DNA of 64,000 nucleotides, taken from contig JBFFGE010000003.1 of the NCBI GenBank assembly GCA_041557595.1, forward strand, positions 1,656 through 65,655, written 5' to 3'. Made by a program: the position numbers and the translations under genes. The notes under the pieces are model-generated. The model searched no databases. It was not told the origin of the DNA and was given only the letters and a program-made list of their open reading frames with translations. The DNA is from Alphaproteobacteria bacterium. GTDB lineage: Bacteria; Pseudomonadota; Alphaproteobacteria; UBA8366. Within the stretch, counting starts at the first letter, position 1, and every line of letters begins with the position of its first letter. Shown here in pieces: positions 38,957 to 60,113 of this stretch.

Positions 38957-39032
<76 letters not shown>

Positions 39033-42815: not shown

Positions 42816-45587
42816 TTAGACGGACATCGCCATTTTCTCGATCCGCGCGGCGCAGTACTTGAATTCGGGGATCTTGCCGAAGGGGTCGACCTGCGGATTG
42901 GTCAGCATATTCGCCGGCGCTTCCGAAAAGCAGAATGGAATGAAGATCATGCCGTCCGCGACGTCGCGATCGGCGCGCGCCTTGAGCGTTATGGCGCCGC
43001 GCCGGGTGGCGACGGTAATCATGTCGCCGGCGGTAATGCCGAGCCGCGCCATTTCCCGGGGATTGAGGCCGGCGATCGCCTCCGGCTCCAGTTGGTCGAG
43101 AGTCGCCGCGCGGCGGGTCATCGATCCGGTATGCCAATGCTCCAGCAGGCGGCCCGTCGTCAGCACGAACGGGAAATCGTCGTCCGGCATTTCGTCCGGC
43201 GGCAGCAGGTCGGTGGGGACGATCTTGGCCCGGCCCGACACCGTGGGGAACGATTGCGCAAACATGATCTCGTTGCCCGGTTTGTCGGGCGCGTCGCAGG
43301 GATAGGTAACCGCGTCCTCGCGGAGCAGGCGGTCCCAGGTAATGTTGTTGAGCGAGGGCATGACCTCGGCCATTTCGGCGAAGACCTCCGATACCTGGGC
43401 GTAGGGCCAGTCCAATCCGATGCGCCGTGCGATCTCGGTAATCAGCTCCCAGTCCTGCCGCGCCTGTCCGGGCGGATCGATAACCGGGCGGGCGAGCTGT
43501 ACCTCGCGGTTGGTGTTGGTGAAGGTGCCCCATTTTTCCGCATGGGCGGACGCGGGCAGGATCACATCGGCATGCCAGGCGGTTTCGGTCAGGAAAATAT
43601 CCTGCACGACGAGGTGCTCCAGCGCGGCGAGCGCTTCGCGGGCGTGCTGCACATCGGGGTCGGACATGGCGGGGTTTTCGCCCAGAATATACATGCCCTT
43701 GATCTTGCCGTCGTTGATCGCATGCATGATCTCGACAACGGTCAGGCCTTTCACGGGATCGAGCGTCGTGCCCCAGAATTCCTCGAACCGGGCGCGGATG
43801 TCATCGTCTTCGACGGATTGATAGTCCGGAAAGACCATCGGGATCAGGCCGGCGTCGGACGCCCCTTGCACGTTGTTTTGACCGCGCAGCGGATGCAGGC
43901 CGGTGCCGGGGCGGCCGATTTGCCCGGTCGTTAAGGCGAGAGCGATCAGGCATCTGGCGTTGTCCGTGCCGTGCGTGTGTTGCGATATGCCCATGCCCCA
44001 GAAGATGATGGACCGTTCCGATTTGGCGTAGAGGCGCGCGATCTCGCGGATTTTGTCGGCCGGAATATCGCAGACCGCCTGCATGTCTTCGGGCGAAAAA
44101 TCGCGGACCTTTTCCTTGAGCGCTTCGAAACCTTCCGTATGCGCCTGGATGTACTGGATGTCGTACAGGTCTTCCTCGACGATGGTGTGGAGCATGGCGT
44201 TGAGAAGCGCCACGTCCCGGCCGGGCTTGAATTGCAGGATATGATCGGCATAGCGCGCGATGCCCTGGTTCTGGCCGCGCGGATCCATGACGACGAGTTG
44301 GGCGCCCCGGTCCGCGGCATTCTTGAGGAAGGTCGCGGCGACGGGATGATTTTCGGCCGGCCGCGCGCCGATAACGATGATGCAATCGGAATCCTTTGCC
44401 GCCGTAAACGGGGCCGTTACCGCGCCGGAGTTGAGGCCTTCCATCAACGCCGCGACGGAAGACGCATGGCACAGCCGGGTGCAATGATCGACATTGTTGG
44501 TCTCGAAGCCCTGCCGAATGAGTTTCTGGAACAGATAGGCTTCTTCGTTCGAACCTTTCGCGGAGCCGAATCCGGCGATCGCCTTGCCGCCGTCGCGATG
44601 ATGGATTTCCGTCAGGCCCGACGCGGCGAGGGCGAGCGCCTCTTCCCAGCTTGCCTCGCGGAACACTTGCGCCCAATCGCTCGCCTCGAGGCGCATGTTG
44701 GCGTCTTTGGCGACGCCCTCTTTGCGAATAAGCGGCGTCTTCAGTCGGTCGGGGTGATGAATGTAGTCGAAGCCGAAGCGCCCTTTGACGCAGAGCCGGT
44801 TCTCGTTCGCCGGTCCATCGCGGCCATCGACGTAGAGGATCTTGTTGTCCTTTACGTGCACCGTTGTCTGGCAACCGACACCGCAATACGGGCACAGCGT
44901 ATCGACACTCTTGTCTTCGAAGGCGATGCGTTTGCCGGATTTCTCGTCGATGAGGCTGCGTTCCATGAGCGCGCCGGTCGGACACGCCTGTACGCACTCG
45001 CCGCAGGCGACACAGGTGCTGTCGCCCATGCCTTCATCGAAGTCGAAGACGACCTTTGCCTGATGGCCGCGATACGCCATGCCGATGACGTCGTTCATCT
45101 GCACTTCGCGGCAGGCCCGGACGCACAGACCGCAATTGATGCAGGCGTCGAGGTTTACGGCGATCGCGGAATGGCTGTAGTCGGCGGCGGGTTTTCGGTC
45201 CGACGGGTAGCGGCTCGTAGGCTCGATCTCCATCGATGCGACCCAATCCCAAAACTTGGATTTCGGGTCGTGGCTTTCGGGCTGCTGCGGCTGATCGGCG
45301 AGCAGCAGTTCGAAAACCATCTTGCGCGCCTTTTTCGCCCGATCCGTCGCCGTTTTGACTTTCATTCCGGCGGAGACCTTGCGTTGGCACGACGCCGCCA
45401 GGACGCGCTCGCCCTCGACTTCGACCATGCAGGCGCGGCAATTGCCGTCGGCGCGGTATCCGGGCTCCGGTTGCCAGCAAAGATGCGGTATCGTTTCGCC
45501 CTGGCGTTGCGCCGCTTGCCAAATGGTCTCGTCCGGATCCGCTTCGACGTCGCGGCCGTTCAATTCAAATGTAATCTTTTTCTTCAT
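42816..45587 (-). CDS. fdsA: NAD-dependent formate dehydrogenase, molybdopterin catalytic alpha subunit (Cys type)
   Basis: 923 aa from MKKKITFELNG. N-terminal 2Fe-2S/4Fe-4S Cys clusters, molybdopterin domain with VDHCTRLCHASSV (Cys at the Sec/Cys position) and HPLRGQNNVQGA. No in-frame stop. Confidence 0.93.
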   Translation of the reverse strand: MKKKITFELNGRDVEADPDETIWQAAQRQGETIPHLCWQPEPGYRADGNCRACMVEVEGERVLAASCQRKVSAGMKVKTATDRAKKARKMVFELLLADQPQQPESHDPKSKFWDWVASMEIEPTSRYPSDRKPAADYSHSAIAVNLDACINCGLCVRACREVQMNDVIGMAYRGHQAKVVFDFDEGMGDSTCVACGECVQACPTGALMERSLIDEKSGKRIAFEDKSVDTLCPYCGVGCQTTVHVKDNKILYVDGRDGPANENRLCVKGRFGFDYIHHPDRLKTPLIRKEGVAKDANMRLEASDWAQVFREASWEEALALAASGLTEIHHRDGGKAIAGFGSAKGSNEEAYLFQKLIRQGFETNNVDHCTRLCHASSVAALMEGLNSGAVTAPFTAAKDSDCIIVIGARPAENHPVAATFLKNAADRGAQLVVMDPRGQNQGIARYADHILQFKPGRDVALLNAMLHTIVEEDLYDIQYIQAHTEGFEALKEKVRDFSPEDMQAVCDIPADKIREIARLYAKSERSIIFWGMGISQHTHGTDNARCLIALALTTGQIGRPGTGLHPLRGQNNVQGASDAGLIPMVFPDYQSVEDDDIRARFEEFWGTTLDPVKGLTVVEIMHAINDGKIKGMYILGENPAMSDPDVQHAREALAALEHLVVQDIFLTETAWHADVILPASAHAEKWGTFTNTNREVQLARPVIDPPGQARQDWELITEIARRIGLDWPYAQVSEVFAEMAEVMPSLNNITWDRLLREDAVTYPCDAPDKPGNEIMFAQSFPTVSGRAKIVPTDLLPPDEMPDDDFPFVLTTGRLLEHWHTGSMTRRAATLDQLEPEAIAGLNPREMARLGITAGDMITVATRRGAITLKARADRDVADGMIFIPFCFSEAPANMLTNPQVDPFGKIPEFKYCAARIEKMAMSV

Positions 45588-45637
45588 CTTGCGCTCCGCG
45601 CATTGCCGTCGACGGTCGGGAATTGGATGCAGCCATG

Positions 45638-47323
45638 TTATTTCAGGTCGTCCGGAAAGTATCGTAATGCGCTCAGGAGTGGGTTCGGGGCGGCTTGCCC
45701 CAAACCGCAAATCGACGCTTCGGCCATGACCTCGGCGAGGTCGCGAAGAAGTTCTTCGTCCCAATCCGGCCGGGTCATGAGCTGCACGGCTTTCGACGTT
45801 CCGTTGCGGCACGGCGTGCATTGTCCGCAGCTTTCATCCTCGAAGAAGCGCATGAGGTTGAGGGCGGCATCCCTGATGTTGTCCTGGTCGGACAGGAAGA
45901 CCACCGCGTGGCTGCCGACGAAGCAGCCGTGTTTTTCGAGCGTTCCGAAGTCCAGGGGAATGTTTGCCAAATCGGCGGGGAGAATGCCGCCGGAAGCCCC
46001 GCCGGGAAGATAGCCTTTAAGCGTATGACCGTCCGCCATGCCGCCGGAAGCGGCGAGAAGGTCTTCCGCGGTCGAACCCGCCGGCATCAGCTTGACGCCC
46101 GGCGTCTTCACGCGGCCCGAAACCGAATAGGTGCGCAATCCCTTCGCGCCATTCTTGCCCTGCGTCGCAAACCATTCGGCGCCGTTTTCGATGATCGCCG
46201 GGACCCAGTAAAGCGTCTCGACGTTGTTGACCAGGGTCGGCCGGTCGAAGACGCCGACCTGCGCAACATAGGGCGGTCGATGGCGGGGGAGGCCGCGCTT
46301 GCCCTCGATGCTCTCGATCATCGCGCTTTCTTCACCGCAGATGTAGGCGCCGGCGCCGCGTCGAAGATGGACTTTCGTGTGGTCGACCAGCCCCGCATTT
46401 TTGGCCGCCGAGATCTCGCATTTGAGGATCGCCAGGACGGCCGGGTATTCGTCGCGGATGTACAGGAAGACTTCCTCGGCCTCGACGGCCCAGGCGGCGA
46501 TCAGCATGCCTTCGAGAAATTTGTGCGGTTCGGTCTCCAGGAAATGGCGATCCTTGAAGGTTCCCGGCTCGCCCTCGTCTCCGTTGACGGCCATCAGGCG
46601 CGGACCCTCGGTGTCGCGCACCAGGCCCCACTTTCTGCCGGTCGGAAAGCCTGCCCCTCCCAGACCGCGCAGGCCGCCGTCCGAAAGGGTCGCAATGACG
46701 TCGTCGACGCTTCTCGCGCCATCGAGGCAACTCTCGAGAACGCCGTACCCGCCGCCCGCGCGGTAGGTTTCGTAGTCCTGATAGTGCGGCATCTCGGGAT
46801 GGACATCCCCCGCCGCCGCGAGGGTCTGTACGGTCTCAACGGTCGCATGGGGGACATGGCGATGTCCGATCTCGCAGACCGGCGCCTGATGGCAGGCCCC
46901 CATACAGGGTGCGCGAACCAAGCGAACGCCCGCCAAGTCGGCGGCCGCGAGGTCACGATGCAGTTCTTCGGCGCCGGCAAGTGCGCAGCTAAGACTGTCG
47001 CACACGCGCACCGTGGTCGGCGCCGGCCGCTCGGCGCCGTCGGGCACGACATCGAAATGCGCGTAAAACGTGGCGACTTCGTACACCTCCGCCATCGGGA
47101 TGCGCAGAAGTTCGGCGAGGCTGTGCAGATGCGATGCGGGCAAGCATTTTTCCGCATCCTGGATCAGGTGCAGATATTCGATCAACAACGCGCGTTCAAA
47201 GGGGCCGTCGCCGATCAGCGCACGGACGGAGTCGATTTCGGTCTCTTTGGCGACCCGGCCTTTCGGGTGGAGGAGCGCCTTACGTCGGCCCGCGCCGGGA
47301 TGTACTGAAGAGTCACCGGCCAT
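45638..47323 (-). CDS. fdsB: formate dehydrogenase diaphorase subunit, fused NuoE-like (FdsG) + NuoF-like (FdsB) domains
   Basis: 561 aa. The N-terminal roughly 150 aa are a thioredoxin-like 2Fe-2S module (CDSLSC...CMGAC). This is followed by the NuoF-type FMN/NAD module (GLRGLGGAGFPTGRKW, ESCGQCTPCR). Confidence 0.88.
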   Translation of the reverse strand: MAGDSSVHPGAGRRKALLHPKGRVAKETEIDSVRALIGDGPFERALLIEYLHLIQDAEKCLPASHLHSLAELLRIPMAEVYEVATFYAHFDVVPDGAERPAPTTVRVCDSLSCALAGAEELHRDLAAADLAGVRLVRAPCMGACHQAPVCEIGHRHVPHATVETVQTLAAAGDVHPEMPHYQDYETYRAGGGYGVLESCLDGARSVDDVIATLSDGGLRGLGGAGFPTGRKWGLVRDTEGPRLMAVNGDEGEPGTFKDRHFLETEPHKFLEGMLIAAWAVEAEEVFLYIRDEYPAVLAILKCEISAAKNAGLVDHTKVHLRRGAGAYICGEESAMIESIEGKRGLPRHRPPYVAQVGVFDRPTLVNNVETLYWVPAIIENGAEWFATQGKNGAKGLRTYSVSGRVKTPGVKLMPAGSTAEDLLAASGGMADGHTLKGYLPGGASGGILPADLANIPLDFGTLEKHGCFVGSHAVVFLSDQDNIRDAALNLMRFFEDESCGQCTPCRNGTSKAVQLMTRPDWDEELLRDLAEVMAEASICGLGQAAPNPLLSALRYFPDDLK

Positions 47324-47412
47324 GCTTGTTTGCCCCAGAATACCATTTCATATGCGCGAGCCATCTGCGCAGTGACGTCTACTGTCGAACGAACTTGTTG
47401 CTGACCCAGGTA

Positions 47413-47434
47413 GCATACGGATTTGGGTATACCA
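47413..47434. promoter_or_regulatory. operator-like motif, split variant GCATACGG-ATTTGG-GTATACCA, upstream of fdsB
   Basis: Same half-elements as the site at 47661-47676 with a 6-nt insertion. Lies 90-111 nt from the fdsB start. Confidence 0.45.
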
Positions 47435-47660
47435 TATGCCTAAATGACGCACCTGTCGACAGGCGCGGGTGTGTGCCGGGCGTGCACGGCGGATGCAAAA
47501 GGCCGGATGCCGCCGGCAAAACTTGCAACGTGCGGCGGTGTATCGTTCACAGGTCAGCTAAGCAAAATGTGACGGTTTAACAATCGCAAGGGTCGGCCTG
47601 AATCCATCTATGGTGGATAAAGCAGCGTCTAAAATCCGTCTTGCGACGGTCATCATATTT

Positions 47661-47676
47661 GCATACGGTATACCAA
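47661..47676. promoter_or_regulatory. operator-like motif GCATACGGTATACCAA upstream of tctC
   Basis: Matches GCATAC-N4-TACCAA. Related copies are at 51128-51143 and 60187-60202 (reverse orientation). Confidence 0.5.
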
Positions 47677-47842: not shown

Positions 47843-48838
47843 ATGCCTGTACGGAAGAAAGCTTCGTTGCTTGTTTTAGGACTCGGATCAACCGCAATGG
47901 TGATTATGGCCGGCGCGACTGCGGCGAACGCCGAATGGAAGCCGGCAAAGCCAATTGAGTTTGTCGTGATGGCCGGCAAGGGCGGCGGCGCCGACAAGGC
48001 CGTTCGGCTCATGCAATCCATCATCGCGAAAGAGAAATTAGGGCCGGTCGTCAATCCGGTGAACAAACCCGGCGGGACCGGCGCGGAAGCCCTCGTGTAT
48101 ATGAATCAAAAGAAGGGGGACGATCATACGATCATGTTCACCCTGAACAGCTTTTACACGACGCCGTTGAGGCAGCCGAATCTTGGGGTCGATATCGCAA
48201 CCTTCACCCCCGTTATGCGCATGGCGGAAGATACCTTCTGTTTGTGGGTCAATAAGGCCCGCAAGGATGGCCAGGAAATCAAGACCGTGCCGCAGTTCGT
48301 GAAAGCGGCCAAGGCTGCCGGCAGCAAATGGATCATGGCGGGCACGGGCAAGGCGTCCGAAGACAACCTGCTCACCGATTTCTTGAACACTGCATACGGT
48401 TTGAAGATGAAGTATGTGCCGTACAAGGGCGGTGGACGCGTCGCCAAGGAATTGGCCGGCAACAATGCGGATTCGACCGTCAACAACCCGTCCGAGCAAA
48501 TGGGCTTTTACGAGGCCGGCAAGACCCGTCCGATTGCTTGTTTCACGCCGGAGCGGATCGGTCTCTTCAAAGAGGCACCGACCTTTAAGGAACTCGGTCA
48601 GGACTTCGTCTACTACATGCAGCGGACCGTCGTGGGTGCGCCGGGCATGAGCGACGGCGCCAAGAAATACTATAAGGACCTTTTCACGAAGGTCTTCAAT
48701 TCCAAAGATTGGCAATCCTACCGAAACAAGAGAGCCCTTGTCGGCGAGGCGCTCACCGGCCCGGAGTTGGTGTCATATTGGAAGAAAGAGCGCGATATCC
48801 ATCGTGCAATGTTGAAGAAGATGGGCGCCATAAAGTAA
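47843..48838 (+). CDS. tctC: tripartite tricarboxylate transporter (TTT) substrate-binding protein, Bug/TctC family
   Basis: 331 aa with a signal peptide ending ANA-EW. Shows Bug-family patterns (PIEFVVMAGKGGGAD, YVPYKGGG). GGAGGA RBS. Confidence 0.88.
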   Translation: MPVRKKASLLVLGLGSTAMVIMAGATAANAEWKPAKPIEFVVMAGKGGGADKAVRLMQSIIAKEKLGPVVNPVNKPGGTGAEALVYMNQKKGDDHTIMFTLNSFYTTPLRQPNLGVDIATFTPVMRMAEDTFCLWVNKARKDGQEIKTVPQFVKAAKAAGSKWIMAGTGKASEDNLLTDFLNTAYGLKMKYVPYKGGGRVAKELAGNNADSTVNNPSEQMGFYEAGKTRPIACFTPERIGLFKEAPTFKELGQDFVYYMQRTVVGAPGMSDGAKKYYKDLFTKVFNSKDWQSYRNKRALVGEALTGPELVSYWKKERDIHRAMLKKMGAIK

Positions 48839-48898
48839 CGCCGGGACGATCGATTCCGGCGCGAGCCGAATTGTCCATGTGATTTGGAGGGGTGGGTC

Positions 48899-49414
48899 AT
48901 GACCGTGCGCAAAGCCGAGTTGTTCATGGCTCTGATCATGGCCTCCCTCTCCGGTTACCTCATGTGGAAGAGCGCCGAACTGCCGATCGGCTGGATTGCC
49001 GATGAAGGGCCTGGTGGCGGCGCCTGGCCTTTCTGGCTTGCCACGGTAATGTTGCTGAGTTGCGGCTGGATCCTTGTGAACTGGGTGCGGCGCACTTCCT
49101 GGCCCTCGAAATCGGAGGCGCCGTTTTTCGAATCCGGCGTATTGAAAGACGTCAGTGCCGTGGCGATCGCGCTGACGGTTACCATTGCGCTGTTCGACTA
49201 CATCGGCGCCTATCTTTCGCTGTTCTTCTTCATCGCGTTTTATGTCGGCGTTCTTGGGCGTCACCGATTGCTGACGACCGCGCTCTTCAGCGTGCTCACG
49301 CCGATCATCACCTTTTTCTTTTTCGAGATCGGGGTGAAAATTATTCTCCCGAAAGGTTTCACGGAACCGTTCTTCTTTCCGATCTTCAAGTTTTTTGGAA
49401 TGGGCGGGCTTTAG
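48899..49414 (+). CDS. tctB: TTT small membrane subunit, TctB family
   Basis: 171 aa with four TM segments. ATG lies 7 nt after GGAGGGG. Positioned between tctC and tctA. Confidence 0.8.
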   Translation: MTVRKAELFMALIMASLSGYLMWKSAELPIGWIADEGPGGGAWPFWLATVMLLSCGWILVNWVRRTSWPSKSEAPFFESGVLKDVSAVAIALTVTIALFDYIGAYLSLFFFIAFYVGVLGRHRLLTTALFSVLTPIITFFFFEIGVKIILPKGFTEPFFFPIFKFFGMGGL

Positions 49415-49520: not shown

Positions 49521-51074
49521 ATGGTCGAGACGCTTGGTTTCCTAATCGACGGATTTGCCGTGGCACTCCAGCCGATGAATCTCGCCCTGATTGTCTTCGG
49601 TTGCGCGGTCGGTTTGTTCATCGGTGCAATGCCCGGCCTCGGCTCCGTGAATGGCGTGGCAATACTTCTGCCTCTCACCTTTCTGGTACCGCCGACCGGC
49701 GCGATCATATTCCTGGCGGCCCTCTATTACGGCGCCATGTATGGCGGGGCGGTGTCGTCGATTATGCTGGGGATACCCGGCGCCTCCACCGCCGTTGCCA
49801 CCACGTTCGACGGCCGGCCGCTCGCGAAACAGGGATTGGCCGACAAGGCGCTGGTCGCGGCAGCCTTTGCCTCGTTCGTCGGCGGCACGATTTCCGTCGT
49901 CCTGTTTACGCTGGCCGCGCCGCCGCTGGCGCATATCGCGCTTGTCTTCGGATCGCCCGAGGAATTTGCGTTGATGATGCTGGCCTTCGCGACCTTCGTC
50001 GGCCTGGGCGGGGACGATATCGCCAAGACGCTGTTTTCGATCTGCATAGGGCTGGTGCTCGCCGCCATCGGCACGGACATCATGACCGGCGAGCCGCGGT
50101 TGATGCTGTTCGACTATCCCGGCTTCCTCAGCAAGATCAACTTTCTAATCCTCGCAATCGGTATTTACGGCATCGGCGAGATGCTGTGGACCATCGAAGA
50201 GCACCGGCGCAACGGCGGCAAGTCCATGCTGTCCGACGCCACCATCAGCCTCAAACGATCGCTCTCCCATCTGCGCGAGCTTCTCAAGACGTGGAAGACG
50301 ATGGTGATGGGATCCGTGCTCGGGTATTTCGTCGGCATTCTTCCCGCGGCCGGGGCGACCCCGGGTTCGCTGATGGCCTATGGGTTCGGGAAGCAGATTT
50401 CGAAAAATCCGGAAACCTTCGGCAAGGGCAACATCGAAGGCGTTGTCGCGCCGGAATCCGCAAACAACGCCGCATCGACCGGATCGATGCTTCCGATGCT
50501 GACGCTCGGCATTCCAGGATCACCGACGACGGCTATTCTGTTGGGCGGCATGGTCATCTGGGGGCTGGAACCGGGTCCCCGTCTCTTTACCGATCAAAAG
50601 GAATTCGTTTGGGGATTGATCGCATCGCTCTATGCGGCAAATCTGTTCGCACTGATCATCAACGTCGCCTTCATTCCCGCATTCATCGCCGTTCTGCGTT
50701 TGCCCTTTACGCTGCTTGCGCCGATCATTTTCGTGCTCTGTATCGTTGGCGGCTATGCGCCGACCCAGCGTTTGTTCGATGTCTGGCTGATGCTGATATT
50801 CGGCGTCGTCGGTTACCTCATGCGCAAGCTCGAATATCCGGTCGCACCGGCGGTCCTGGCGATCGTTCTGGGGCCTCTTGCGGAGCCGGCCCTTCGGCAA
50901 TCGCTGCTGATCAGCGGGGGCAGTTTTTCGATCTTCCTCGACATAGCCGAGCGGCCCTATGCCGCCGTGATTATGTACGTCGCGATCATCCTTCTCCTGC
51001 TGCCCCTCCTCGGACCGTTGAGACGATGGATGAAGGAACGCACTGACGAGAAGGTCACCGAGCGACGGGGTTAA
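49521..51074 (+). CDS. tctA: TTT large permease, TctA family
   Basis: 517 aa, polytopic, with TctA signatures (GAMPGLG, GIPGS repeated). Confidence 0.9.
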   Translation: MVETLGFLIDGFAVALQPMNLALIVFGCAVGLFIGAMPGLGSVNGVAILLPLTFLVPPTGAIIFLAALYYGAMYGGAVSSIMLGIPGASTAVATTFDGRPLAKQGLADKALVAAAFASFVGGTISVVLFTLAAPPLAHIALVFGSPEEFALMMLAFATFVGLGGDDIAKTLFSICIGLVLAAIGTDIMTGEPRLMLFDYPGFLSKINFLILAIGIYGIGEMLWTIEEHRRNGGKSMLSDATISLKRSLSHLRELLKTWKTMVMGSVLGYFVGILPAAGATPGSLMAYGFGKQISKNPETFGKGNIEGVVAPESANNAASTGSMLPMLTLGIPGSPTTAILLGGMVIWGLEPGPRLFTDQKEFVWGLIASLYAANLFALIINVAFIPAFIAVLRLPFTLLAPIIFVLCIVGGYAPTQRLFDVWLMLIFGVVGYLMRKLEYPVAPAVLAIVLGPLAEPALRQSLLISGGSFSIFLDIAERPYAAVIMYVAIILLLLPLLGPLRRWMKERTDEKVTERRG

Positions 51075-51127: not shown

Positions 51128-51143
51128 TTGGTCTATTGTATGC
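51128..51143. promoter_or_regulatory. operator-like motif TTGGTCTATTGTATGC upstream of the first GntR gene
   Basis: Reverse complement GCATACAATAGACCAA has one deviation from GCATAC-N4-TACCAA. An extra GTATGC lies at 51110-51115. The site is 76-91 nt before ATG 51219. Confidence 0.45.
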
Positions 51144-51218: not shown

Positions 51219-51905
51219 ATGGCTATCGCTGAATTAAACATCGCACCGATCAAGGAAACGCCCAGCTTGAAAGCGCGCGCCTACCGGGCGATCAAATCCG
51301 CGATTCTGGAGATGAACATCTATGCCGACGAGACGGATCTGCGGCTGGACGAGCGCGGATTGTCGCAGCGGCTTGGAATCAGCAGAACGCCCATTCGCGA
51401 AGCCATATCCCAACTCGATCAGGAAGGGTTTGTCAGGATCGTGCCGCGGAAGGGCATCTACATCATCCGCAAGACCAAGGCGGAAATCCACGACATGATC
51501 ACCGTGTGGGCCGCCCTCGAGAGCATGGCGGCGCGGTTGATTTCCAAGGGCGCCGACGACGGAGACATCAAAAGACTGAGAGCGCTCGTCGATCAATTCT
51601 CGCAGGATGAAGTCGCCGCCAAGACCGGCGAATATTCGGATGCGAATATCGAATTTCACCAAGCGATCATTCGCATGAGCGGCTGTCCGCTGATCAGCGA
51701 GATTACCGACGGTCTGTTCTTTCACGTCCGCGCCATTCGTCATCGCTCGATTTTCAAACTGGACCGCGCGCGCAGATCGATCGTCGACCACAAGGAAATC
51801 GTTGCCGCGATCGAAGCGCGCGATACCGAGCGGGCCGAGCGGCTCGTTCGGGACCACACAATGAAGTTGCGCGATCACGTCGAGCAATATGTCGAACTCG
51901 ACTGA
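51219..51905 (+). CDS. GntR-family transcriptional regulator, FadR/FCD subfamily (paralogue 1)
   Basis: 228 aa from MAIAELN. Winged HTH (LSQRLGISRTPIREAISQLDQEGFV) plus an FCD-type helical domain. Confidence 0.88.
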   Translation: MAIAELNIAPIKETPSLKARAYRAIKSAILEMNIYADETDLRLDERGLSQRLGISRTPIREAISQLDQEGFVRIVPRKGIYIIRKTKAEIHDMITVWAALESMAARLISKGADDGDIKRLRALVDQFSQDEVAAKTGEYSDANIEFHQAIIRMSGCPLISEITDGLFFHVRAIRHRSIFKLDRARRSIVDHKEIVAAIEARDTERAERLVRDHTMKLRDHVEQYVELD

Positions 51906-52000
51906 CGCGGGACCGCCGGCATTCGGTTGCCTGCGCAAGTCGACGGCAAGTCGATGGTAAGGTGACGGTATTCAACGAACCGCCGTAGCACCGGTTCGCG

Positions 52001-53851
52001 ATGACGGTTCGAACCGATGCGTCTCGAATGACCGAGGTTGGGGACCAGCTTTTGCCAGCAACGCAGGGCGAAATTTTCGGACCGTGGAACCCGGGTATCA
52101 GGTCGGTGCTGCCGCGGGACGTGCTCCCGCTTTCGACGATGTTCCGGCCGGAAAATGTCGAGACGAGTCTGGATCAAGCACAGGACTTGAGCGATTTTTG
52201 CGGGTTGCCTGCGGTTCAACTCGTGGCATTCCGCGCCGAAAGGCTTGTCATTCATGAACTGCTGATTCGCGTCACGGCCGATCTCGAGGTACGGGACGGG
52301 TCCACCTATGAAGATCTCGGCATAAATTTTCGCAGGATTGCGAATACGATTTTGACGGAACTCCTGGCGCCGAAGGCAACCGGTTTCGTCGAGCTGCTTG
52401 ATGAAGTCCGACGCAATGCGAGGGATTTAATAACCGCCGAACTGTCCCAAAACCTGTTTGGCGAGAAACCGCGCGACGCGGTCGCGGAGCGGCGCCCACT
52501 TCTTCTGCGCCTAGCCGGATGGCGTCGAGGCACGGCGGACGGCAAAACGAACCGAGAAAGCACGGAAGAACGCGAGACGAGGGCGATCGCGGCATGGCAA
52601 TCCATGGCGAAGACCGCTGGAAGTCCGCTCGAAAAATCCTGTTATGGCGCACTGGCAAGAATGGCGAACGCGGTCATGGCGCGCCGGGGCCGACTCGCGG
52701 GCGGCGCGGCACTCATCGCCGATATCGCCGTCGCGCGGGTGAACAACGAATACGGCAGCGATGTCATCGGCGCGGCGATCGATCCGCTCTTCCGCGAAGC
52801 GGCCAGGCAAAACGGCTACCGCTTCCTGCCGTGCCAGGCGCGCCCGGTGGTGATGAACGTGAAGGGCGCGTCGGCGGCCGGCAAAAGTACGATAAGACCG
52901 TATCAACATGCGCTCGCCGATCGGATCGGGATTCCCTGGACGGACTTTGCTCTGATAAGCCCCGATATCTGGCGCAAACTGCTGTTGGACTATCAATCCT
53001 TGGGGGCAGCCTATAAGTACGCCGGAATGCTGACCGGCCATGAATTGGAGGTCATCGACAAGAAACTCGACAAATACATGGCGGGAAAGGCCTCCGGCGG
53101 CGCGATGACCCACCTCTCGATCGACCGTTTTCGCTTTGACAGTTTTCTCCCCGAATCCCAGGTAGACGCGGCGAGCAAACTCCTCACCCGTTTCGGCGAT
53201 CTCGTTTACATGTTCTTCATGATCACGCCGCCCGAAGCGACGGTCGAGCGCGCCTGGTTGCGCGGACAGAAGTTCGGCCGATACAAGGCGGTCGACGATC
53301 TACTCGACCACAATATCGAGGCGTATACCGGCATGCCGGAATTGTTCTTCACATGGGCGCTGCGGACGCAGCGGCGCGTGCATTATGAGTTCCTGGACAA
53401 CAGCGTCCCGAAAGATCATTTGCCGCGCACCGTTGCGTTTGGATGGAACGGCGAAATGAACATCCTCGACGTCAATTCGATGCTCGATATCGACCGCTTC
53501 AAGAAAATCGACGTGAATGCGAAATCGCCGGAAGACGTCTATGTCGCGTCGGCGCAGGCGCCGGAGAACAATGTCGACTTCATAAAGCAATGCGCCCGGA
53601 TGATCCCGGCGCTGAACTTCGCGGATATCGAGACCGGATGTCTCTACGCGCGTATGGAACACGGCCGTTGGACGTGGCAGGACCGAGAGGTCTTTGCCGA
53701 GAAGTTAAGAGACCCGGAAGCCGGCGCCGGCCTGCGGGCGATCGGCACGGGACCCGCGCCGACCGCATTACCCGGTAACGAACCGCGCCGGTTACTGCGC
53801 GAAGATGCGCATACAATTGGCGCATGGGCCGACGGCGGAAAGCCCGTTTGA
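52001..53851 (+). CDS. uncharacterised 616-aa P-loop NTPase/kinase-like protein
   Basis: Long uninterrupted ORF with coding-like third-position GC. Walker A KGASAAGKST is encoded at 52865-52891, followed by LISPDIWRKLL and a candidate Walker B LSIDRF. No TM or signal. Flanking domains of roughly 280 aa (N) and 200 aa (C) are unrecognised. Confidence 0.7.
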   Translation: MTVRTDASRMTEVGDQLLPATQGEIFGPWNPGIRSVLPRDVLPLSTMFRPENVETSLDQAQDLSDFCGLPAVQLVAFRAERLVIHELLIRVTADLEVRDGSTYEDLGINFRRIANTILTELLAPKATGFVELLDEVRRNARDLITAELSQNLFGEKPRDAVAERRPLLLRLAGWRRGTADGKTNRESTEERETRAIAAWQSMAKTAGSPLEKSCYGALARMANAVMARRGRLAGGAALIADIAVARVNNEYGSDVIGAAIDPLFREAARQNGYRFLPCQARPVVMNVKGASAAGKSTIRPYQHALADRIGIPWTDFALISPDIWRKLLLDYQSLGAAYKYAGMLTGHELEVIDKKLDKYMAGKASGGAMTHLSIDRFRFDSFLPESQVDAASKLLTRFGDLVYMFFMITPPEATVERAWLRGQKFGRYKAVDDLLDHNIEAYTGMPELFFTWALRTQRRVHYEFLDNSVPKDHLPRTVAFGWNGEMNILDVNSMLDIDRFKKIDVNAKSPEDVYVASAQAPENNVDFIKQCARMIPALNFADIETGCLYARMEHGRWTWQDREVFAEKLRDPEAGAGLRAIGTGPAPTALPGNEPRRLLREDAHTIGAWADGGKPV

Positions 53852-53891: not shown

Positions 53892-56027
53892 CTACAGCAG
53901 GCCTGCGCCGCGCGCCCATCGGTACTTCGCACCCAGCACGTTGACCGGGAGCTCGGTCGTATAGGGGTAGGCGACAATGCCGCGCTCGTAGAGGTACTCC
54001 GACGCTTCCTCGACCTCGACATCGCCGACGAGCGACGCGACGACGGGTTTATCGATGCCCTTCTCGCGCGCATCCTCGACGACTTTGGCGGTCAGCTTCG
54101 CGAACACCATCGGCGGCGTCACGATCGTATGCCAGTATCCCAGGATCAGCGCATGGATCCGTTCGTCCTGCAATCCCAGTTTGATCGTGTTCGCATAAGT
54201 CTGCGGCGGCTCGCCGCCGGTGATGTCGACCGGGTTGCCGGCCGCGCCGAAGGGCGGAATGAATTTTCGGAATGCGGCGTCCAGATCTTTCGGCATGCGC
54301 ATCAATTTCAGGCCGTTATCGACACAGGAATCCGAGAGCAGGACACCCGAGCCGCCGGCGCCGGTGATGATCACCACGTTCTCGCCCTTCGGGGTGGGCA
54401 ATTTCGGAATCCCGCGGGCGAATTGCAGCATATCGTTCAAGGTTCGCGCGCGAATGACGCCCGATTGCTTGAGCACGTCTTCGTATATCTTGTCGTTGCC
54501 GGCCAACGCGCCGGTGTGCGACGCGGCGGCCCGCGCGCCCATCGACGTGCGGCCCGCCTTGAGGACGATGATCGGCTTGGACTTCGAGACGCGCTTCGCG
54601 ACCTCGGCGAAGGAACGACCGTCCTTTAGATCCTCGAGATGCATCGCCATGACTTCGGTATTCTTATCCTGCTCGAAATAGACGAGCAGGTCGTCTTCAT
54701 CCAGGTCGGATTTGTTGCCGAGACCGACAATGGCCGAGACCCCCATCTTGGTCGAGCGGCTGAAGCCGATGATCGACATGCCGACGCCGCCGCTCTGCGA
54801 CGACAGCGCGACCTTTCCCTTGACGTCGTATGGCGTACAGAACGTGGCGCACAGGTTCTGCGGGGTGTAGTAGAAGCCATAGATGTTGGGGCCCATGACG
54901 CGGACGTTGTATTTTCGGGCGACCGCGAGCATTTCGTCCTGCAGCGCCACTTCGCCGGTCTCCGCGAAGCCCGACGGGATCATGACCGCGCCGGGTATTT
55001 TCTTCTCGCCGACTTCCTTCAATGCGCCGGTCACGAAGGGCGCGGGAATGGCGAAGACGGCGACGTCGACCTTGCCGGCGATGTCCTTGACGCTCTTGTA
55101 GCATTTGTAGCCGAGGACCTTGTCCGCCTTCGGATTGATCGGATAGATGTTGCCCTTGTAACCGCCATTGATCAGGTTCTTCATCACCGAATTGCCGATC
55201 TTGCCGTCTTCCGCGGATGCGCCGATCACGGCGACGGCTTTCGGATTCATGATCCGTTTCATCGCCGTCAGAATGTCTTCCTGCGACGGCCGGAACGGCG
55301 CTTGCTGCGGTTTCAGGTCGATCAGGATGCGCACATCGACGGCGGTCGCGCCTTTCTTGCGGACGAAGACCGGGTTGAGGTCGAGTTCGCCGATTTCCGG
55401 AAAATCGGATACCAGCTTCGAGACGTTCTTGATCAGCGTCGCCAGCGCCTTGCGGTCGACCGGATCGGCACCGCGGACGCCCTTGAGCATTTCGGCGCCC
55501 TCGATGCCGTCGAGCATGGACAGCGCATCGCGCTGGGTCGCAGGTGCGAGTCGGAAGGTAATGTCTTTCATCACTTCCACGAGGATACCGCCGAGACCGA
55601 AAGCGACCAGCTTGCCGAAACTGGGATCGGTCACCGCGCCGATAAGAACTTCCTGCGCGCCGTCCGGCGACAACATTTTCTGGACCTGCACGCCGTCGAT
55701 GCGCGCCTTCTTGTCGTATTTGCGCCCGTTGGCGACGATTGTCGCGAAGGCTTTCCTGGCCTCGCCGACGCTGGAGACGCCGACCACGACGCCGCCCGCA
55801 TCGGTCTTGTGAAGGATGTCTTCCGAGACGATTTTCATCACGACCGGGAAGCCGATCCGCTTGGCGAGGGCGGCCGCCTTGTCGGCGGTCGCGGCGATGC
55901 CGTCGCGCGGCAGAGGAATTTCGTAGGCCGAACAAATCTTCTTGCATTCGGCGGCCGACAGCGCGGACCGGCCCGCTTTCAGTGCCTTATCGAGGACGGT
56001 GCGAACCGCCTTTTTGTTGAAAGCCAT
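53892..56027 (-). CDS. ADP-forming acyl-CoA synthetase (NDP-forming, acetate--CoA ligase family), domain order ATP-grasp then CoA-binding/ligase-CoA
   Basis: 711 aa from MAFNKK. The N-terminal ATP-grasp subdomain (GFPVVMKIVSEDILHKTDAGGV) comes first. It is followed by a CoA-binding Rossmann domain (VAVIGAS...GNIYPINP) and the phosphohistidine loop AASHTGALAG. Confidence 0.85.
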   Translation of the reverse strand: MAFNKKAVRTVLDKALKAGRSALSAAECKKICSAYEIPLPRDGIAATADKAAALAKRIGFPVVMKIVSEDILHKTDAGGVVVGVSSVGEARKAFATIVANGRKYDKKARIDGVQVQKMLSPDGAQEVLIGAVTDPSFGKLVAFGLGGILVEVMKDITFRLAPATQRDALSMLDGIEGAEMLKGVRGADPVDRKALATLIKNVSKLVSDFPEIGELDLNPVFVRKKGATAVDVRILIDLKPQQAPFRPSQEDILTAMKRIMNPKAVAVIGASAEDGKIGNSVMKNLINGGYKGNIYPINPKADKVLGYKCYKSVKDIAGKVDVAVFAIPAPFVTGALKEVGEKKIPGAVMIPSGFAETGEVALQDEMLAVARKYNVRVMGPNIYGFYYTPQNLCATFCTPYDVKGKVALSSQSGGVGMSIIGFSRSTKMGVSAIVGLGNKSDLDEDDLLVYFEQDKNTEVMAMHLEDLKDGRSFAEVAKRVSKSKPIIVLKAGRTSMGARAAASHTGALAGNDKIYEDVLKQSGVIRARTLNDMLQFARGIPKLPTPKGENVVIITGAGGSGVLLSDSCVDNGLKLMRMPKDLDAAFRKFIPPFGAAGNPVDITGGEPPQTYANTIKLGLQDERIHALILGYWHTIVTPPMVFAKLTAKVVEDAREKGIDKPVVASLVGDVEVEEASEYLYERGIVAYPYTTELPVNVLGAKYRWARGAGLL

Positions 56028-56201
56028 GTGCCTTCTCCCTGAGGTGAATTTATTTTTAGAAAAAATTGCCGCGCGTCCGGCGCACCTCATTTCTTGGTGC
56101 GTCGGAGAGGCCGGGCATTCGTTCGTGTGAACTCGCGATGATCTTATTTCGGGCGCTAGACGACGCCTGTAACAAAGAGACCGGTCTTGAAACAATTCTC
56201 G

Positions 56202-57464
56202 TTATGCAATTTCGCCCACGGCACCCGATTTGACGACGTCTTCGAATTCCTCACCCGAATACCCGAGAACTTCCTTCAAGATTTCGACCGTGTGTTCGCC
56301 GAGCAGCGGCGACCGCTTGACGTCCGCCGGACTGTCGGAAAGCTTTACCGGGCAACCGACCGTAAGATAGGGTCCGCGCTCCGGATGATCGACTTCCACG
56401 ATCGTGCCGGTTTTGCGCAGCGACGGCTCCTCGGCCAGTTCCTTCATTGAAAGGATCGGGCCGCACGGAATATCGAGCGGATTGCAGGCATCCATCACCT
56501 CGAATTTGGTCTTGGTCTTGGTCCATTCCTCGATGCGGTCGAAAATTTGTGGAATCTTGTCGAGGCGGGCATCGGGTTTCGCAAATCCCGGATCGTCCTT
56601 CCAGTCGGGCTGTCCGATCAGGTCGCAGATATTACCCCAGACCGCGGCCTGGGTGATGAAGTAGACATAGGCATTCGGATCGGATTCCCAGCCCTTGCAT
56701 TTGAGGATCCAGCCCGGCTGACCGCCGCCCGAATCGTTGCCCGCACGCGGCGTTGCGTCGCCGAACGGGATGCCCTGGCCGTGCTGGCTGTATTCCGTCA
56801 GCGGCCCGCGTTCGAGACGCTGCTGGTCGCGCAGTTTGACGCGGCATAAATTCAGGACGCCGTCCTGCATGGATGCGAGAACTTTCTGTCCGCGCCCGGT
56901 TTGTTCGCGTTGAAACAGTGCGGTGACGATCCCCAGCGCAAGATGGAGCCCCGTGCCGCTGTCGCCGATTTGGGCGCCGGTGACCGTCGGCGGACCGTCG
57001 AGGAAACCGGTGGTCGACGCGGAGCCGCCCGTACACTGGGCCACATTCTCATAGACCTTGCAGTCTTCATACGGGCCGGGGCCGAATCCCTTGATCGACG
57101 CCAGGATCATGCGCGGGTTCAACTCCTGAACCCGCTCCCAACCGAACCCCATGCGATCCAATGCGCCGGGCGCGAAGTTTTCGACCATGACATCGCAGGT
57201 CTTGATCAACCTTTCGAGGACCGCCTTGCCTGTCTCGTTCTTGGTGTTGAGCTCGATGGAGCGCTTGTTGTGATTCAGCATGGTGAAGTAGAGCGAATCC
57301 GCCCCCGGCACATCGACGAGCTGCTTGCGCGTAGCATCGCCGACGCCGGGCCGTTCGACCTTGATCACGTCCGCGCCGAACCAGGCAAGAAGTTGCGTGC
57401 ATGTCGGGCCGGATTGCACATGGGTGAAATCGAGAATTTTTATGCCTTCAAGCGCCTTACCCAT
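56202..57464 (-). CDS. frc: formyl-CoA:oxalate CoA-transferase (family III CoA-transferase)
   Basis: 420 aa from [37 protein letters not shown]. Adjacent to oxc. Confidence 0.9.
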
Positions 57465-57532
57465 CGGGGTCTCCTTATTGCGTATGCGGACAGGGCGGCG
57501 CAACGCCGCCGCCCTGTCTCATCTGTCGCGCG

Positions 57533-59281
57533 TTATTTGTACATCGTTTGGCGTTTGGTGCCCGGCGCGTATTCGTTGGGATCGATCCAGACATTGACGA
57601 CGGCACATTTGCCCGTCTTGGCGATGGCTTCGCGGGCGCGTTGAAGCGCCGGTTGAATCTGGTCGGCTTCGCGGACCTCTTCGCCGTAGCCGCCGATCAT
57701 CTCGCCGAACTTCGAGAATTCGACGTCGCCGAGCTTGTTGCCGATGTCGCCGCGATTGGGGCCGTATTTGGCGAGCTGACCGTACCGGATCTGGTTCATC
57801 GCCGAATTGTTGCCGACGACGGCCAGGTAGGGCGCGCCGAAGCGTTGCGCCGTTTCCATATCGAACGACGTCATGCCGAACGAACCGTCGCCATAGAGGC
57901 ACATGACCTCTTTCCCCGGATGCGCGAGTTTGGCGGCCATCGAGAAACCGGTTCCGACGCCCAGCGACCCGAGGGCGCCCGGGTCCATCCACTGTCCCGG
58001 GTTCCGCGGCCGTACGGCTTGTGCCGAAATCGTGACGATGTCGCCGCCATCGCCGATATAGATGGTGTCCTCGCCAAGGAACTCGTTGATTTCCCAGGCA
58101 AGGCGATAGGGATGAATCGGACTGCTGTCGGACAGGAACAGGGGCATCAGTTTGTCGAGCTTGCTCGCTTCGATGCCGCGCAGCTGTTCCATCCATTCTT
58201 GCCGCTTCTTGCGGGCGCCCTTTTCGATCCGCCCGCTCGCCGCTTGGGCAACCGCGGTCAGAATTGCGCCGGGATCGCCGACAAGGCCAAGGCTGATATC
58301 GCGGTTCTTGCCGACGGTGCGGTAGTCCATGTCGATCTGGACGAGCGTTGCGGCCTTGGAAATGCGCTTGCCGTAGCCCATGCGGAAGTCGAACGGGGTG
58401 CCGACGATAAGAATGACGTCGGCATCCTTGAACGCATCGGACCGTGTGCGGTCGAAATGGTGCGGGTCGTCCTGCGGAAGCATTCCCCGGCTGGCGCCAT
58501 TCATGTACGCCGGAATGTCCAGTGCCCGAATGAATGCGATCGCCTCGTTATGGCCTTGCGATGCCCAGACCTGTTGCCCGAACAAGACTGCCGGGCGTTC
58601 CGATTTCACCAGAATGTCGGCGAGGCGTTCGATGTCTGCGGGATCGCCGATCGATTTCGTCGATGCCCGATACTGCCCGGCTTGCGGCAGGACGGCCTGG
58701 TCGATCGGGATTTCCGCGTCGAGAATGTCGCGCGGAATTTCGAGATAGGACGGACCGTACGCGCCGGCGAAACATTCCCGGGCGGCCATCGAGATCATGT
58801 CGGCGACACGGTTGGTGGAGAACACGCCCGACGCGAATTTGGTGATCGGCGTCATCATGTCGACATGCGGCAGATCCTGCAGCGAACCCTGCTTGTGTTG
58901 GGTGAGCGAGCTTTGTCCGCCGATATGCAGGATCGGGCTCTCCGAGCGAAACGCCGTGGCGACGCCGGTGACCGCGTTGGTGCAGCCGGGGCCGGCGGTC
59001 GTGACAACACAGCCGAGCTTGCCGGTCTGGCGGGCGTACCCGTCGGCCGCATGTGCCGCGGTTTGCTCGTGCCGGACGTCAACGATCCGGATGCCCTCGT
59101 CGATGCAGCCGTCGTAGATGTCGATGATATGGCCACCGCAGAGCGTGAATACCGTATCGACCCCTTCGGCTTTGAGGGCCTTGGCGACAAGGCCGCCGCC
59201 CGAGATCGTAGATCCGTCCTTGGTTTTTTGCGCTAGCGTATCGTCTGCGGTTGCGGACCGGGCGGTTGCGGGTGTCGCCAT
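57533..59281 (-). CDS. oxc: oxalyl-CoA decarboxylase (ThDP-dependent)
   Basis: 582 aa with ThDP motif GDGSFGM...NNSAMN. N-terminal pyrimidine-binding domain with HEQTAAHAADGYAR. Confidence 0.9.
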   Translation of the reverse strand: MATPATARSATADDTLAQKTKDGSTISGGGLVAKALKAEGVDTVFTLCGGHIIDIYDGCIDEGIRIVDVRHEQTAAHAADGYARQTGKLGCVVTTAGPGCTNAVTGVATAFRSESPILHIGGQSSLTQHKQGSLQDLPHVDMMTPITKFASGVFSTNRVADMISMAARECFAGAYGPSYLEIPRDILDAEIPIDQAVLPQAGQYRASTKSIGDPADIERLADILVKSERPAVLFGQQVWASQGHNEAIAFIRALDIPAYMNGASRGMLPQDDPHHFDRTRSDAFKDADVILIVGTPFDFRMGYGKRISKAATLVQIDMDYRTVGKNRDISLGLVGDPGAILTAVAQAASGRIEKGARKKRQEWMEQLRGIEASKLDKLMPLFLSDSSPIHPYRLAWEINEFLGEDTIYIGDGGDIVTISAQAVRPRNPGQWMDPGALGSLGVGTGFSMAAKLAHPGKEVMCLYGDGSFGMTSFDMETAQRFGAPYLAVVGNNSAMNQIRYGQLAKYGPNRGDIGNKLGDVEFSKFGEMIGGYGEEVREADQIQPALQRAREAIAKTGKCAVVNVWIDPNEYAPGTKRQTMYK

Positions 59282-59423
59282 TTTTCAAACCCTTCCTAAA
59301 TGGTCAAGTTGGTGCTGTCGGCGGAAATAGGTTCCGACTTGGATTTGGTTTCTTCTGTTTTCCGTAATGCCGTGGGCATCTTGTTCTTTCGTCGCTTAAA
59401 AGGGGCGATGATACGGTGTCGTT

Positions 59424-60113
59424 TCAATCCAGATAGTGGGCGTTCTCGTCGACATGCGCCGCGAGCCCGAGCGTGTGCTCTCGCACCAGCCGTTCCGCGA
59501 GGTCGGCGTCTCGTTGCTCCAGCGCTTCGATAATGTTCATGTGATCGATAATGGACCGGCTCGCGCGATCGTTTTCGGAAATCGTCCGCATGCGGATCCA
59601 TCGCATGTGGGCGAGAAGATTCTCTGCCATCTGATTGAGCAACGCGCAGTCGCTCATGCTCAGGATCGCTTGGTGAAATTGAATGTTGGTCTCGGAATAT
59701 TCGTCGATTTCGGCCTGCACCCGGTCGTCGTCGAAGGTCGCGAACATCTTGCGCAGCGTGGCGATTTCCCGGTCCGTCGCGCGCAGCGTGATGAGGCGCG
59801 CCGCCATGCCTTCCAGCGCGGCCCATACGGTGATCATCTCGAGAATCGCCTGCTTGGTCTTGCGGACGACGAAGGCGCCCCGGCGCGGTATGACCTTGAC
59901 GAAGCCCTCCTGCTCCAACCGGGAGATGGCTTCCCGCACCGGCGTCCGGCTTACGCCGAATTCCTCGGACAGCATGCGCTCGTCGAGGCGCGGTTCCTCG
60001 GTTTGGGCGTAGATGTTCATGGAGGTGATCGCGCGTTTCAGGCCGTCATAGACCTTGTCCTTGAGGACAAAATTCGCCTCGATCGGTTCGATGACCAGCT
60101 TTGCCGTCGCCAT
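59424..60113 (-). CDS. GntR-family transcriptional regulator, FadR/FCD subfamily (paralogue 2)
   Basis: 229 aa. Aligns along its whole length with the 51219-51905 product (roughly half the positions identical by eye, e.g. RLDER.LS...G.SRTP.REAIS.L.QEGFV, ITVWAALE.MAARLI). Confidence 0.88.
   Translation of the reverse strand: MATAKLVIEPIEANFVLKDKVYDGLKRAITSMNIYAQTEEPRLDERMLSEEFGVSRTPVREAISRLEQEGFVKVIPRRGAFVVRKTKQAILEMITVWAALEGMAARLITLRATDREIATLRKMFATFDDDRVQAEIDEYSETNIQFHQAILSMSDCALLNQMAENLLAHMRWIRMRTISENDRASRSIIDHMNIIEALEQRDADLAERLVREHTLGLAAHVDENAHYLD

Follow-up and report, generated by a model that had tools for sequence, protein, structure and literature searches.

This report describes an eleven-gene cluster in a 64,000-nucleotide stretch of alphaproteobacterial DNA (contig JBFFGE010000003.1 of assembly GCA_041557595.1; hereafter the window), which we read, with a probability of about 0.7, as a two-operon oxalate catabolic module under the control of GntR/FCD regulators, leading from oxalate through formate to CO2. 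The nearest relative is a Rhodospirillaceae metagenome-assembled genome (MAG). Domain and profile searches of the open reading frames (ORFs) of the window found all eleven named genes intact between positions 42816 and 60113, in the layout fdh1A<-fdh1B; tctC->tctB->tctA->gntR1->P-loop gene; acd<-frc<-ThDP gene<-gntR2, where ThDP stands for thiamine diphosphate; an earlier note on this DNA had listed them at the same coordinates and in the same order. The family assignments come from these searches, and the substrates and activities are those that we infer.

In the proposed route, the periplasmic protein TctC would capture oxalate and TctBA would bring it into the cell. Frc would move CoA from formyl-CoA onto oxalate, freeing formate, and the ThDP-dependent enzyme would turn oxalyl-CoA into formyl-CoA and CO2. 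An FDH1-type formate dehydrogenase (FDH), encoded divergently from tctC, would oxidise formate to CO2 with formation of NADH. The ADP-forming ligase encoded by acd would spend ATP on the first oxalyl- or formyl-CoA, or on a lost thioester, so that the cycle of Frc and decarboxylase can start and persist. The complete oxalate oxidation module suggested in the earlier note is supported as a coherent route from oxalate via formate to CO2. The logic of this pathway is classical; the decarboxylase family, the type of importer and the ligase partner have not been described for oxalate.

The frc product is, judged by its sequence, a true member of the formyl-CoA:oxalate CoA-transferase family, and presumably has that activity. 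It passes the formyl-CoA transferase equivalog model TIGR03253 (711.7 bits; cut-off 504.2) and gives full-length matches to YfdW of Escherichia coli (1pt5, 574 bits) and Frc of Oxalobacter formigenes (520 bits).

The ThDP-dependent enzyme is a distant relative of oxalyl-CoA decarboxylases (Oxc) and 2-hydroxyacyl-CoA lyases (HACL) and, by sequence comparison, stands outside the Oxc family. It scored 180 bits against Oxc of E. coli, 159 bits against Oxc of O. formigenes (OfOxc; the reference sequence was checked as equal to PDB 2c31) and 204 bits against Oxc of Methylobacterium extorquens (7ayg), whereas true Oxcs score 684–753 bits among themselves and 376–426 bits to HACL/HACS enzymes. The cofactor-activating Glu56 is retained. 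Members of the family, which are named "thiamine pyrophosphate-binding protein" by NCBI and "acetolactate synthase" by JGI, occur in no fewer than 598 species representatives and are 75–95% identical across Alpha-, Beta- and Gammaproteobacteria, with 64% identity to Streptomyces.

Genomic context and gene displacement suggest that this enzyme is an oxalyl-CoA decarboxylase. The ThDP gene is associated with frc and with genes for the transport of oxalate, as expected of an Oxc gene. In Cupriavidus metallidurans CH34, the locus reads panE-gntR-[sucDC]-ThDP-frc-ACD-FAH-...-oxlT (ACD, ADP-forming acyl-CoA synthetase); the syntenic locus of Cupriavidus campinensis carries a canonical Oxc-frc pair (62% identity to OfOxc) plus [sucDC]-frc-ACD and is devoid of the ThDP gene. 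The same swap was found between Caballeronia strains M1242 (ThDP) and SBC1 (canonical Oxc). Because a canonical Oxc takes the place of the ThDP gene in syntenic loci, the family probably does the job of Oxc, and this is the strongest argument for that role. In Cupriavidus necator, growth on oxalate is lost when frc-oxc (H16_B1711-1712) is deleted, and apbA2 (H16_B1719) is close by (PMC7486775); a primer for the apbA2 deletion in that study fits the PanE-like gene of four Cupriavidus loci at its 3' end. A canonical Oxc was absent from the window, from all 84 related loci searched for it and from the second replicon of CH34 (chromosome 1 was outside that search).

The genomic neighbourhood of the ThDP family was surveyed in 80 genome loci with flanks of up to 10 kb. 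The ThDP gene is directly followed by frc in about 64–70 of the 80 loci and directly preceded by a GntR gene in most of them; tctCBA is found nearby in 33 loci, usually in the arrangement tctCBA-gntR-ThDP-frc. Less frequent neighbours are SucC-like (26 loci) and SucD (23) proteins, formate-tetrahydrofolate ligase (fhs, 21), PanE2/ApbA2-like reductases (17), OxlT equivalogs (10; TIGR04259, 651 bits against a cut-off of 335), the ADP-forming ligase (10–14), FDH1 (7–9) and the P-loop gene (4). Since the ThDP-frc pair, tctCBA, the ligase, FDH1 and the P-loop gene recur across these loci, the grouping is not due to chance. The cluster may have originated from the common tctCBA-gntR-ThDP-frc operon by inversion of the ThDP half, duplication of the regulator and addition of the ligase and P-loop genes.

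Two further neighbours were observed in the related loci. A 306-aa Fmt-like formyltransferase comes directly after frc in 40 of the 80 loci (e.g. L012:13227-14147, L041:13487-14425, L011:8391-9305), often succeeded by formate-tetrahydrofolate ligase; it scores 144 bits with TIGR00460, below the cut-off of 201.5, and is absent from the window. An AceK-like isocitrate dehydrogenase kinase/phosphatase (426 bits) is encoded no more than 10 kb from ThDP-frc in loci L006, L012, L023, L065 and L082, which hints at a link to the control of the glyoxylate shunt.

Transporter, formate dehydrogenase, ligase and regulators

The three families of a tripartite tricarboxylate transporter (TTT) are all present and adjacent in the window, each above its gathering score (TctC, PF03401, 75 bits against a cut-off of 27; for TctB and TctA see Table 1). 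The closest PDB match of TctC is Bug27 (72 bits), and its likeness to binding proteins with a known ligand is weak. Orthologues of TctC with 45–75% identity adjoin ThDP-frc in the 33 loci mentioned above, and TctA is 60–80% identical to the copies in related loci. TTT and OxlT occur together in a single locus only (33 vs 10 loci). The TTT system, which the earlier note had favoured over an OxlT-type antiporter, is the best candidate for the importer, being conserved immediately upstream of gntR-ThDP-frc, almost never found together with OxlT, and preceded by the operator motif described below; import of oxalate by this system is likely. The literature searched held no TTT system for oxalate.

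The formate dehydrogenase is, on the evidence of its domains and closest relatives, of the two-subunit FDH1 type of M. extorquens and not of the FdsABG(D) type, so that the names fdsA and fdsG-fdsB given in the earlier note had to be replaced. Fdh1A scores 748 bits with the Fdh-alpha model TIGR01591 (cut-off 666) and has Fer2_4, 4Fe-4S, Molybdopterin and Molydop_binding domains. In Fdh1B, which contains 2Fe-2S_thioredx, Complex1_51K and NADH_4Fe-4S domains, a single ORF covers both the G and the B part; its match to the tungsten FDH1 beta subunit of M. extorquens (7e5z_B) reaches 733 bits, vs 267 bits for FdsB of C. necator (6vw7_B). An FdsD-like ORF was not found downstream of the FDH genes. 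The divergent arrangement of fdh1BA and tctC recurs in locus L056, and the genes share an operon in L078, L011 and L076.

The ligase contains ATP-grasp_5, CoA_binding, Succ_CoA_lig and Ligase_CoA_2 domains in beta-alpha order and the phosphohistidine motif SHTGALAG, as is characteristic of NDP-forming acyl-CoA synthetases. It scores 412–466 bits to the 3-hydroxypropionate- and 4-hydroxybutyrate-CoA ligases of Nitrosopumilus and falls below the cut-off of every substrate-specific equivalog model. Its membership of the module, claimed in the earlier note, is supported by the ThDP-frc-ACD triad, which is conserved from Streptomyces to Cupriavidus; acd is found after frc in Cupriavidus, Caballeronia, Azospirillum and Streptomyces. 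Its most likely role is to prime or refill the pool of CoA esters at the expense of ATP, which is the weakest step of the proposal; a literature search on ADP-forming ligases and oxalate returned nothing useful. Conservation of ATP from formyl-CoA was ranked below priming because it would bring no net gain, as oxalate would then need ATP-dependent activation.

A sucC-sucD pair divergent from ThDP-frc-ACD was observed in loci L084, L089, L091, L083 and L092 (Cupriavidus, Caballeronia, Phyllobacterium and Streptomyces), and C. campinensis has three frc paralogues within one locus. Both features may reflect succinyl-CoA-dependent priming of oxalate activation. Gene order on the Phyllobacterium plasmid comprises oxlT, ACD and sucCD on one side and the TPP-binding (thiamine pyrophosphate-binding) protein, frc, sucCD ... 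FAH and panE on the other; on the Streptomyces plasmid it is [sucDC<-]->ThDP-frc-ACD-OFA transporter.

The product of the P-loop gene had been regarded as an orphan, but it belongs to a large family, for which clustering at 50% identity leaves 774 representatives and searches gave more than 5,800 matches, all named hypothetical; the Walker A, Asp and Arg motifs are invariant in this family. No Pfam or NCBIfam match above threshold was obtained (zeta toxin, PF06414: 14.3 bits; gathering score 22.3). The AlphaFold2 model (pLDDT 88) consists of a helical N-domain, a P-loop kinase-like domain and a beta-rich C-domain, and its Foldseek matches to zeta toxin, PezT, AvrRxo1 and PFK-2 kinase are weak (best E-value 1.5e-3, target TM-score 0.45–0.5). 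In two gammaproteobacterial loci the gene comes after panE as the last of the operon, and in two more it is near the ThDP gene; elsewhere, the neighbours of this family are unrelated. Its membership of the module is uncertain, and it is only loosely linked to the oxalate genes. With a confident three-domain model, the family may merit a study of its own.

GntR1 and GntR2 each combine a GntR winged helix with an FCD domain and share 54% identity; GntR1 is 63–65% identical to Hyphomicrobiaceae-type copies, and neither regulator matched an NCBIfam equivalog. The 16-nt motif TTKGTATRCCRTATGC has as its core a GntR-type palindrome, GGTATACC (t.GT...AC.a). Six matches to this motif with no more than three mismatches were found in the window, vs 0.99 expected. 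All six matches fall into the three intergenic regions of the cluster, namely fdh1B/tctC (two sites), tctA/gntR1 and the region upstream of gntR2 (Table 1). Copy A overlaps the -10-like hexamer of a promoter-like site that faces fdh1B (minus strand, 47459-47431). The related loci contain 32 sites, vs 2.55 +/- 1.07 in shuffled sequences, and 24 of these are located at most 400 nt upstream of tctC, gntR, ThDP, oxlT, panE, fdh1B or sucC, in zones covering 7% of the sequence. The shared motif is thus a link, separate from gene order, between the ThDP-frc unit and both the transporter and FDH1. The two paralogous regulators would bind a common TTGGTATACC-type operator in each of the three promoter regions and act as repressors, with an effector relieving the repression.

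Alternative readings

Several observations count against an oxalate module of this kind, and most of them concern the ThDP-dependent enzyme. The earlier note had labelled its gene oxc, a name that we abandon: the protein falls below the cut-offs of both NCBIfam Oxc models (TIGR03254, 212.6 vs 739.4 bits; NF006721, 232 vs 557 bits), is only 26–28% identical to OfOxc, and has Leu/Gln in place of Tyr120/Glu121 and Gly in place of Ile34 of Oxc, replacements that are invariant in 70 aligned family members. The Leu/Gln pair at Oxc positions 120/121, like the Gly at position 34, is shared with 2-hydroxyisobutyryl-CoA lyase. The alignment to Oxc is ambiguous at Tyr483, Ser553 and Arg555 (lid), and CoA-binding and lid residues were not used as an argument. 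No assay of any member of the family was found in the literature searched, and searches on TPP-binding proteins with frc and on Rv0118c gave nothing useful. The frc-oxc deletion primers of the C. necator study cited above have no match in the Cupriavidus loci, so that the oxc tested there may be of either type. In Azospirillum, canonical Oxc is found on plasmids, and a member of the ThDP family in a MAG (L078); the two were seen together in no single genome, but one genome may hold both, so equivalence might not be strict. To this must be added that oxalate as the ligand of TctC is suggested by gene context, and that the window is without PanE2, Gcl and OxlT, so that any assimilation genes lie elsewhere.

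Some of these points would suit an enzyme of the 2-hydroxyacyl-CoA lyase type, in a module degrading glycolate, lactate or another 2-hydroxy acid: Frc would load the CoA of formyl-CoA onto the acid, the lyase would free formyl-CoA and an aldehyde, and FDH would then oxidise the formate, a logic that also supplies formate for FDH and Fhs. The top PDB match of the ThDP-dependent enzyme is indeed an actinobacterial 2-hydroxyacyl-CoA lyase acting on 2-hydroxyisobutyryl-CoA (259 bits), the second-best NCBIfam match is to 2-hydroxyacyl-CoA lyase, and its Leu-Gln-Asp and Gly-Gly-His active-site motifs agree with the lyase and not with Oxc. However, it reaches only 358.5 bits with the HACL model NF058623 (cut-off 600), and the Ile492-Glu493 of the Actinomycetospora lyase (AcHACL), which includes the catalytic Glu493, stands as Gln-Ile throughout the ThDP family. 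In addition, Frc passes an oxalate-specific equivalog model, sister loci carry OxlT equivalogs and PanE2-like oxalyl-CoA reductase genes, aldehyde dehydrogenase is not a regular neighbour, and it is canonical Oxc that replaces the ThDP-dependent enzyme in syntenic loci. A lyase module is therefore considered unlikely.

The module might instead serve oxalate detoxification or pH homeostasis, like the acid-response island yfdXWUVE of E. coli. Such a function would fit the close relationship of Frc to YfdW, the consumption of a proton by oxalate decarboxylation and the lack of assimilation genes in the window, but FDH1, which yields NADH, is encoded divergently from tctC and the operator motif lies between the two, an importer with a high-affinity solute-binding protein suggests scavenging, and the relatives are mostly marine (pH about 8), with the genes linked to fhs, panE2 and FDH; we regard this function as very unlikely. 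It is more improbable still that only gntR2-ThDP-frc(-acd) forms an oxalate unit, next to which the TTT system, FDH1 and the P-loop gene would lie without any relation to it. There are many TTT systems, often with an unknown substrate, only 33 of the 80 loci contain tctCBA and 7–9 FDH1, and the P-loop family is found in unrelated contexts; for the P-loop gene alone, such a reading is plausible. For the transporter and FDH1 it conflicts with the position of tctCBA directly upstream and co-directional in many lineages, with its almost complete absence from loci that have OxlT, and with the operator motif common to the regions upstream of tctC, fdh1B and gntR in the window and its relatives. The oxalate catabolic module, with its TTT importer and FDH1, is thus the reading retained here.

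Gene coordinates, composition and flanks

The features of the cluster are listed in Table 1. The start of fdh1A was set at 45587 (MKKKITFELNG..., in agreement with relatives) and not at the start of the longest ORF (45821); the boundaries of the ligase and of Frc were taken from two public contigs with identical proteins. The minus-strand ORF 51234-51938, which overlaps gntR1, was not accepted as a gene, being without any domain; the real regulator is gntR1 on the plus strand.

Table 1. Genes and operator-like motif copies of the proposed oxalate module (window coordinates).
Feature	Position	Strand	Remarks
fdh1A, molybdo/tungstopterin catalytic subunit of NAD-linked formate dehydrogenase	42816..45587	-	923 aa
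fdh1B, fused NuoE-like + NuoF-like diaphorase subunit	45638..47323	-	561 aa
Operator-like motif copy A, TGGGTATACCATATGC	47424..47439	+	fdh1B/tctC divergent region; 1 mismatch to the 16-nt motif
Operator-like motif copy B, TTGGTATACCGTATGC	47661..47676	-	tctC-proximal; exact motif match
tctC, periplasmic solute-binding protein of TTT transporter	47843..48838	+	331 aa; signal peptide
tctB, small membrane subunit	48884..49414	+	PF07331, 57 bits
tctA, large membrane subunit	49521..51074	+	PF01970, 497 bits
Operator-like motif copy, TTGGTCTATTGTATGCCA...	51128..51143	+	tctA-gntR1 spacer; near-identical to the copy upstream of gntR2
gntR1, GntR/FCD regulator	51219..51905	+	228 aa; PF00392 + PF07729
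Conserved P-loop protein	52028..53851	+	607 aa; Walker A KGASAAGKST
acd, ADP-forming (NDP-forming) acyl-CoA synthetase, beta-alpha fusion	53892..56027	-	711 aa
frc, formyl-CoA:oxalate CoA-transferase	56202..57464	-	420 aa; TIGR03253
ThDP-dependent enzyme, proposed non-canonical oxalyl-CoA decarboxylase	57533..59281	-	582 aa; TPP_enzyme_N, M and C
gntR2, GntR/FCD regulator, first gene of the gntR2-ThDP-frc-acd unit	59424..60113	-	229 aa; PF00392 + PF07729
Operator-like motif copies, TTGGTATTTTGTATGCCATATGC	60187..60209	+	upstream of gntR2; one exact match and one with 3 mismatches

The G + C content of the cluster is 60.4%, compared with 64.5% upstream and 62.9% downstream, with the lowest value (58.2%) in the tctCBA-gntR1-P-loop part. 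The lower G + C content claimed in the earlier note is therefore real. As evidence for acquisition of the cluster as a unit it is weak, because the low values begin at about 33 kb, before the cluster (60.3% for 33–42.8 kb), and neither an integrase nor an att-like repeat of the tRNA end was found. Lateral spread is better indicated by the 85–89% identity of the ThDP-dependent enzymes between bacterial classes. GntR1 and GntR2 have different nearest relatives.

The flanks consist of ordinary alphaproteobacterial core genes. A tRNA-Ala(GGC) gene (38957-39032) is located at the passage from core genes (aroA, cmk, rpsA) into the stretch of lower G + C content, and a 108-nt direct repeat with 88% identity (39140-39247 and 39909-40016) flanks an hsp20 gene (39399-39818). 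Just beyond gntR2 are genes for an Old Yellow Enzyme-family flavin reductase (60441-61565) and a fused TRAP permease (61604-63733); the same flavin reductase gene adjoins gntR2 on a public contig (L002), and other loci showed no link to oxalate. The G + C maximum of the window (68–72%, positions 17000-26000) contains an aminoglycoside-phosphotransferase-family gene and addA/addB-like helicase-nuclease genes.

Comparison with known systems

The systems of O. formigenes and E. coli (OxlT or YfdV, Frc/YfdW, Oxc/YfdU) have the same Frc equivalog family (520–574 bits) and the same cycle logic as the module in the window, in which a shuttle from formyl-CoA to oxalyl-CoA is coupled to ThDP-dependent decarboxylation. 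In contrast to both, the window has a decarboxylase outside the Oxc family (159–180 bits), a TTT system instead of a major facilitator superfamily antiporter, and FDH1 and an ADP-forming ligase in addition. The module of M. extorquens AM1 (oxc, frc, panE2) is likewise aerobic and alphaproteobacterial, and its tungsten FDH1 is of the same two-subunit type; the organism differs in its canonical Oxc and in panE2, counterparts of which accompany ThDP-frc in the 17 sister loci with a PanE2-like gene and are missing from the window.

The gene order of C. metallidurans CH34 given above (panE to oxlT) is also that of Cupriavidus pauculus and others, with a ThDP-dependent enzyme that is 76–77% identical to that of the window; these loci have OxlT and not TTT, and SucCD, FAH and PanE as extra components. 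In its proposed role, the ligase resembles YfdE of E. coli and UctC of Acetobacter aceti, acetyl-CoA:oxalate CoA-transferases that prime the oxalate cycle (PMC3720670), as it would supply oxalyl-CoA independently of formyl-CoA; its chemistry differs, being ATP-dependent and ADP-forming and not that of a CoA-transferase. The lyase of Actinomycetospora (PDB 7pt1-7pt4) is likewise a ThDP-dependent enzyme that makes formyl-CoA, with Gly-Gly-His and Leu-Gln-Asp motifs in common with the enzyme of the window, but the two are only moderately similar (259 bits, compared with 684–753 bits between true Oxcs), and the lyase is separated from the enzyme of the window by the change at Ile492-Glu493 and by the genomic context of the latter, which is related to oxalate and not to 2-hydroxyisobutyrate.

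A wider proposal, to which we give even odds, is that the ThDP protein may found an unrecognised Leu/Gln class of oxalyl-CoA decarboxylases outside the Oxc/HACL clade, present in at least about 600 species; that this class, together with a dedicated TTT importer and a GntR/FCD regulon, is the chief means of using oxalate in many marine Alpha- and Gammaproteobacteria, invisible to surveys based on oxc markers and on KEGG or PGAP; and that the conserved partner ligase has the so far undescribed activity of an ADP-forming oxalate (or formate)-CoA ligase. Surveys of oxalotrophy use frc, oxc and oxlT as markers (PMC12927642, PMC13409138). If the ThDP family and TTT replace Oxc and OxlT, two of these three markers fail for many organisms, among them abundant marine SAR116, Arenicellales, relatives of Thioglobus and Rhodobacteraceae, and the turnover of oxalate in the ocean would be underestimated; surveys with oxc as a marker probably miss many oxalate-using bacteria. 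The enzyme would also provide a new scaffold for formyl-CoA chemistry, which is of interest to work on synthetic one-carbon pathways.

The transporter of the window has all three Pfam families of known TTT systems (TctCBA; Bug27, AdpC, TphC), and its TctC carries a signal peptide and the Gly-rich loops of the Bug/TctC type; with at most 72 bits to TTT binding proteins of known ligand, it is distant from all of these, and an oxalate-binding TctC would add a ligand to this mostly orphan family of binding proteins.

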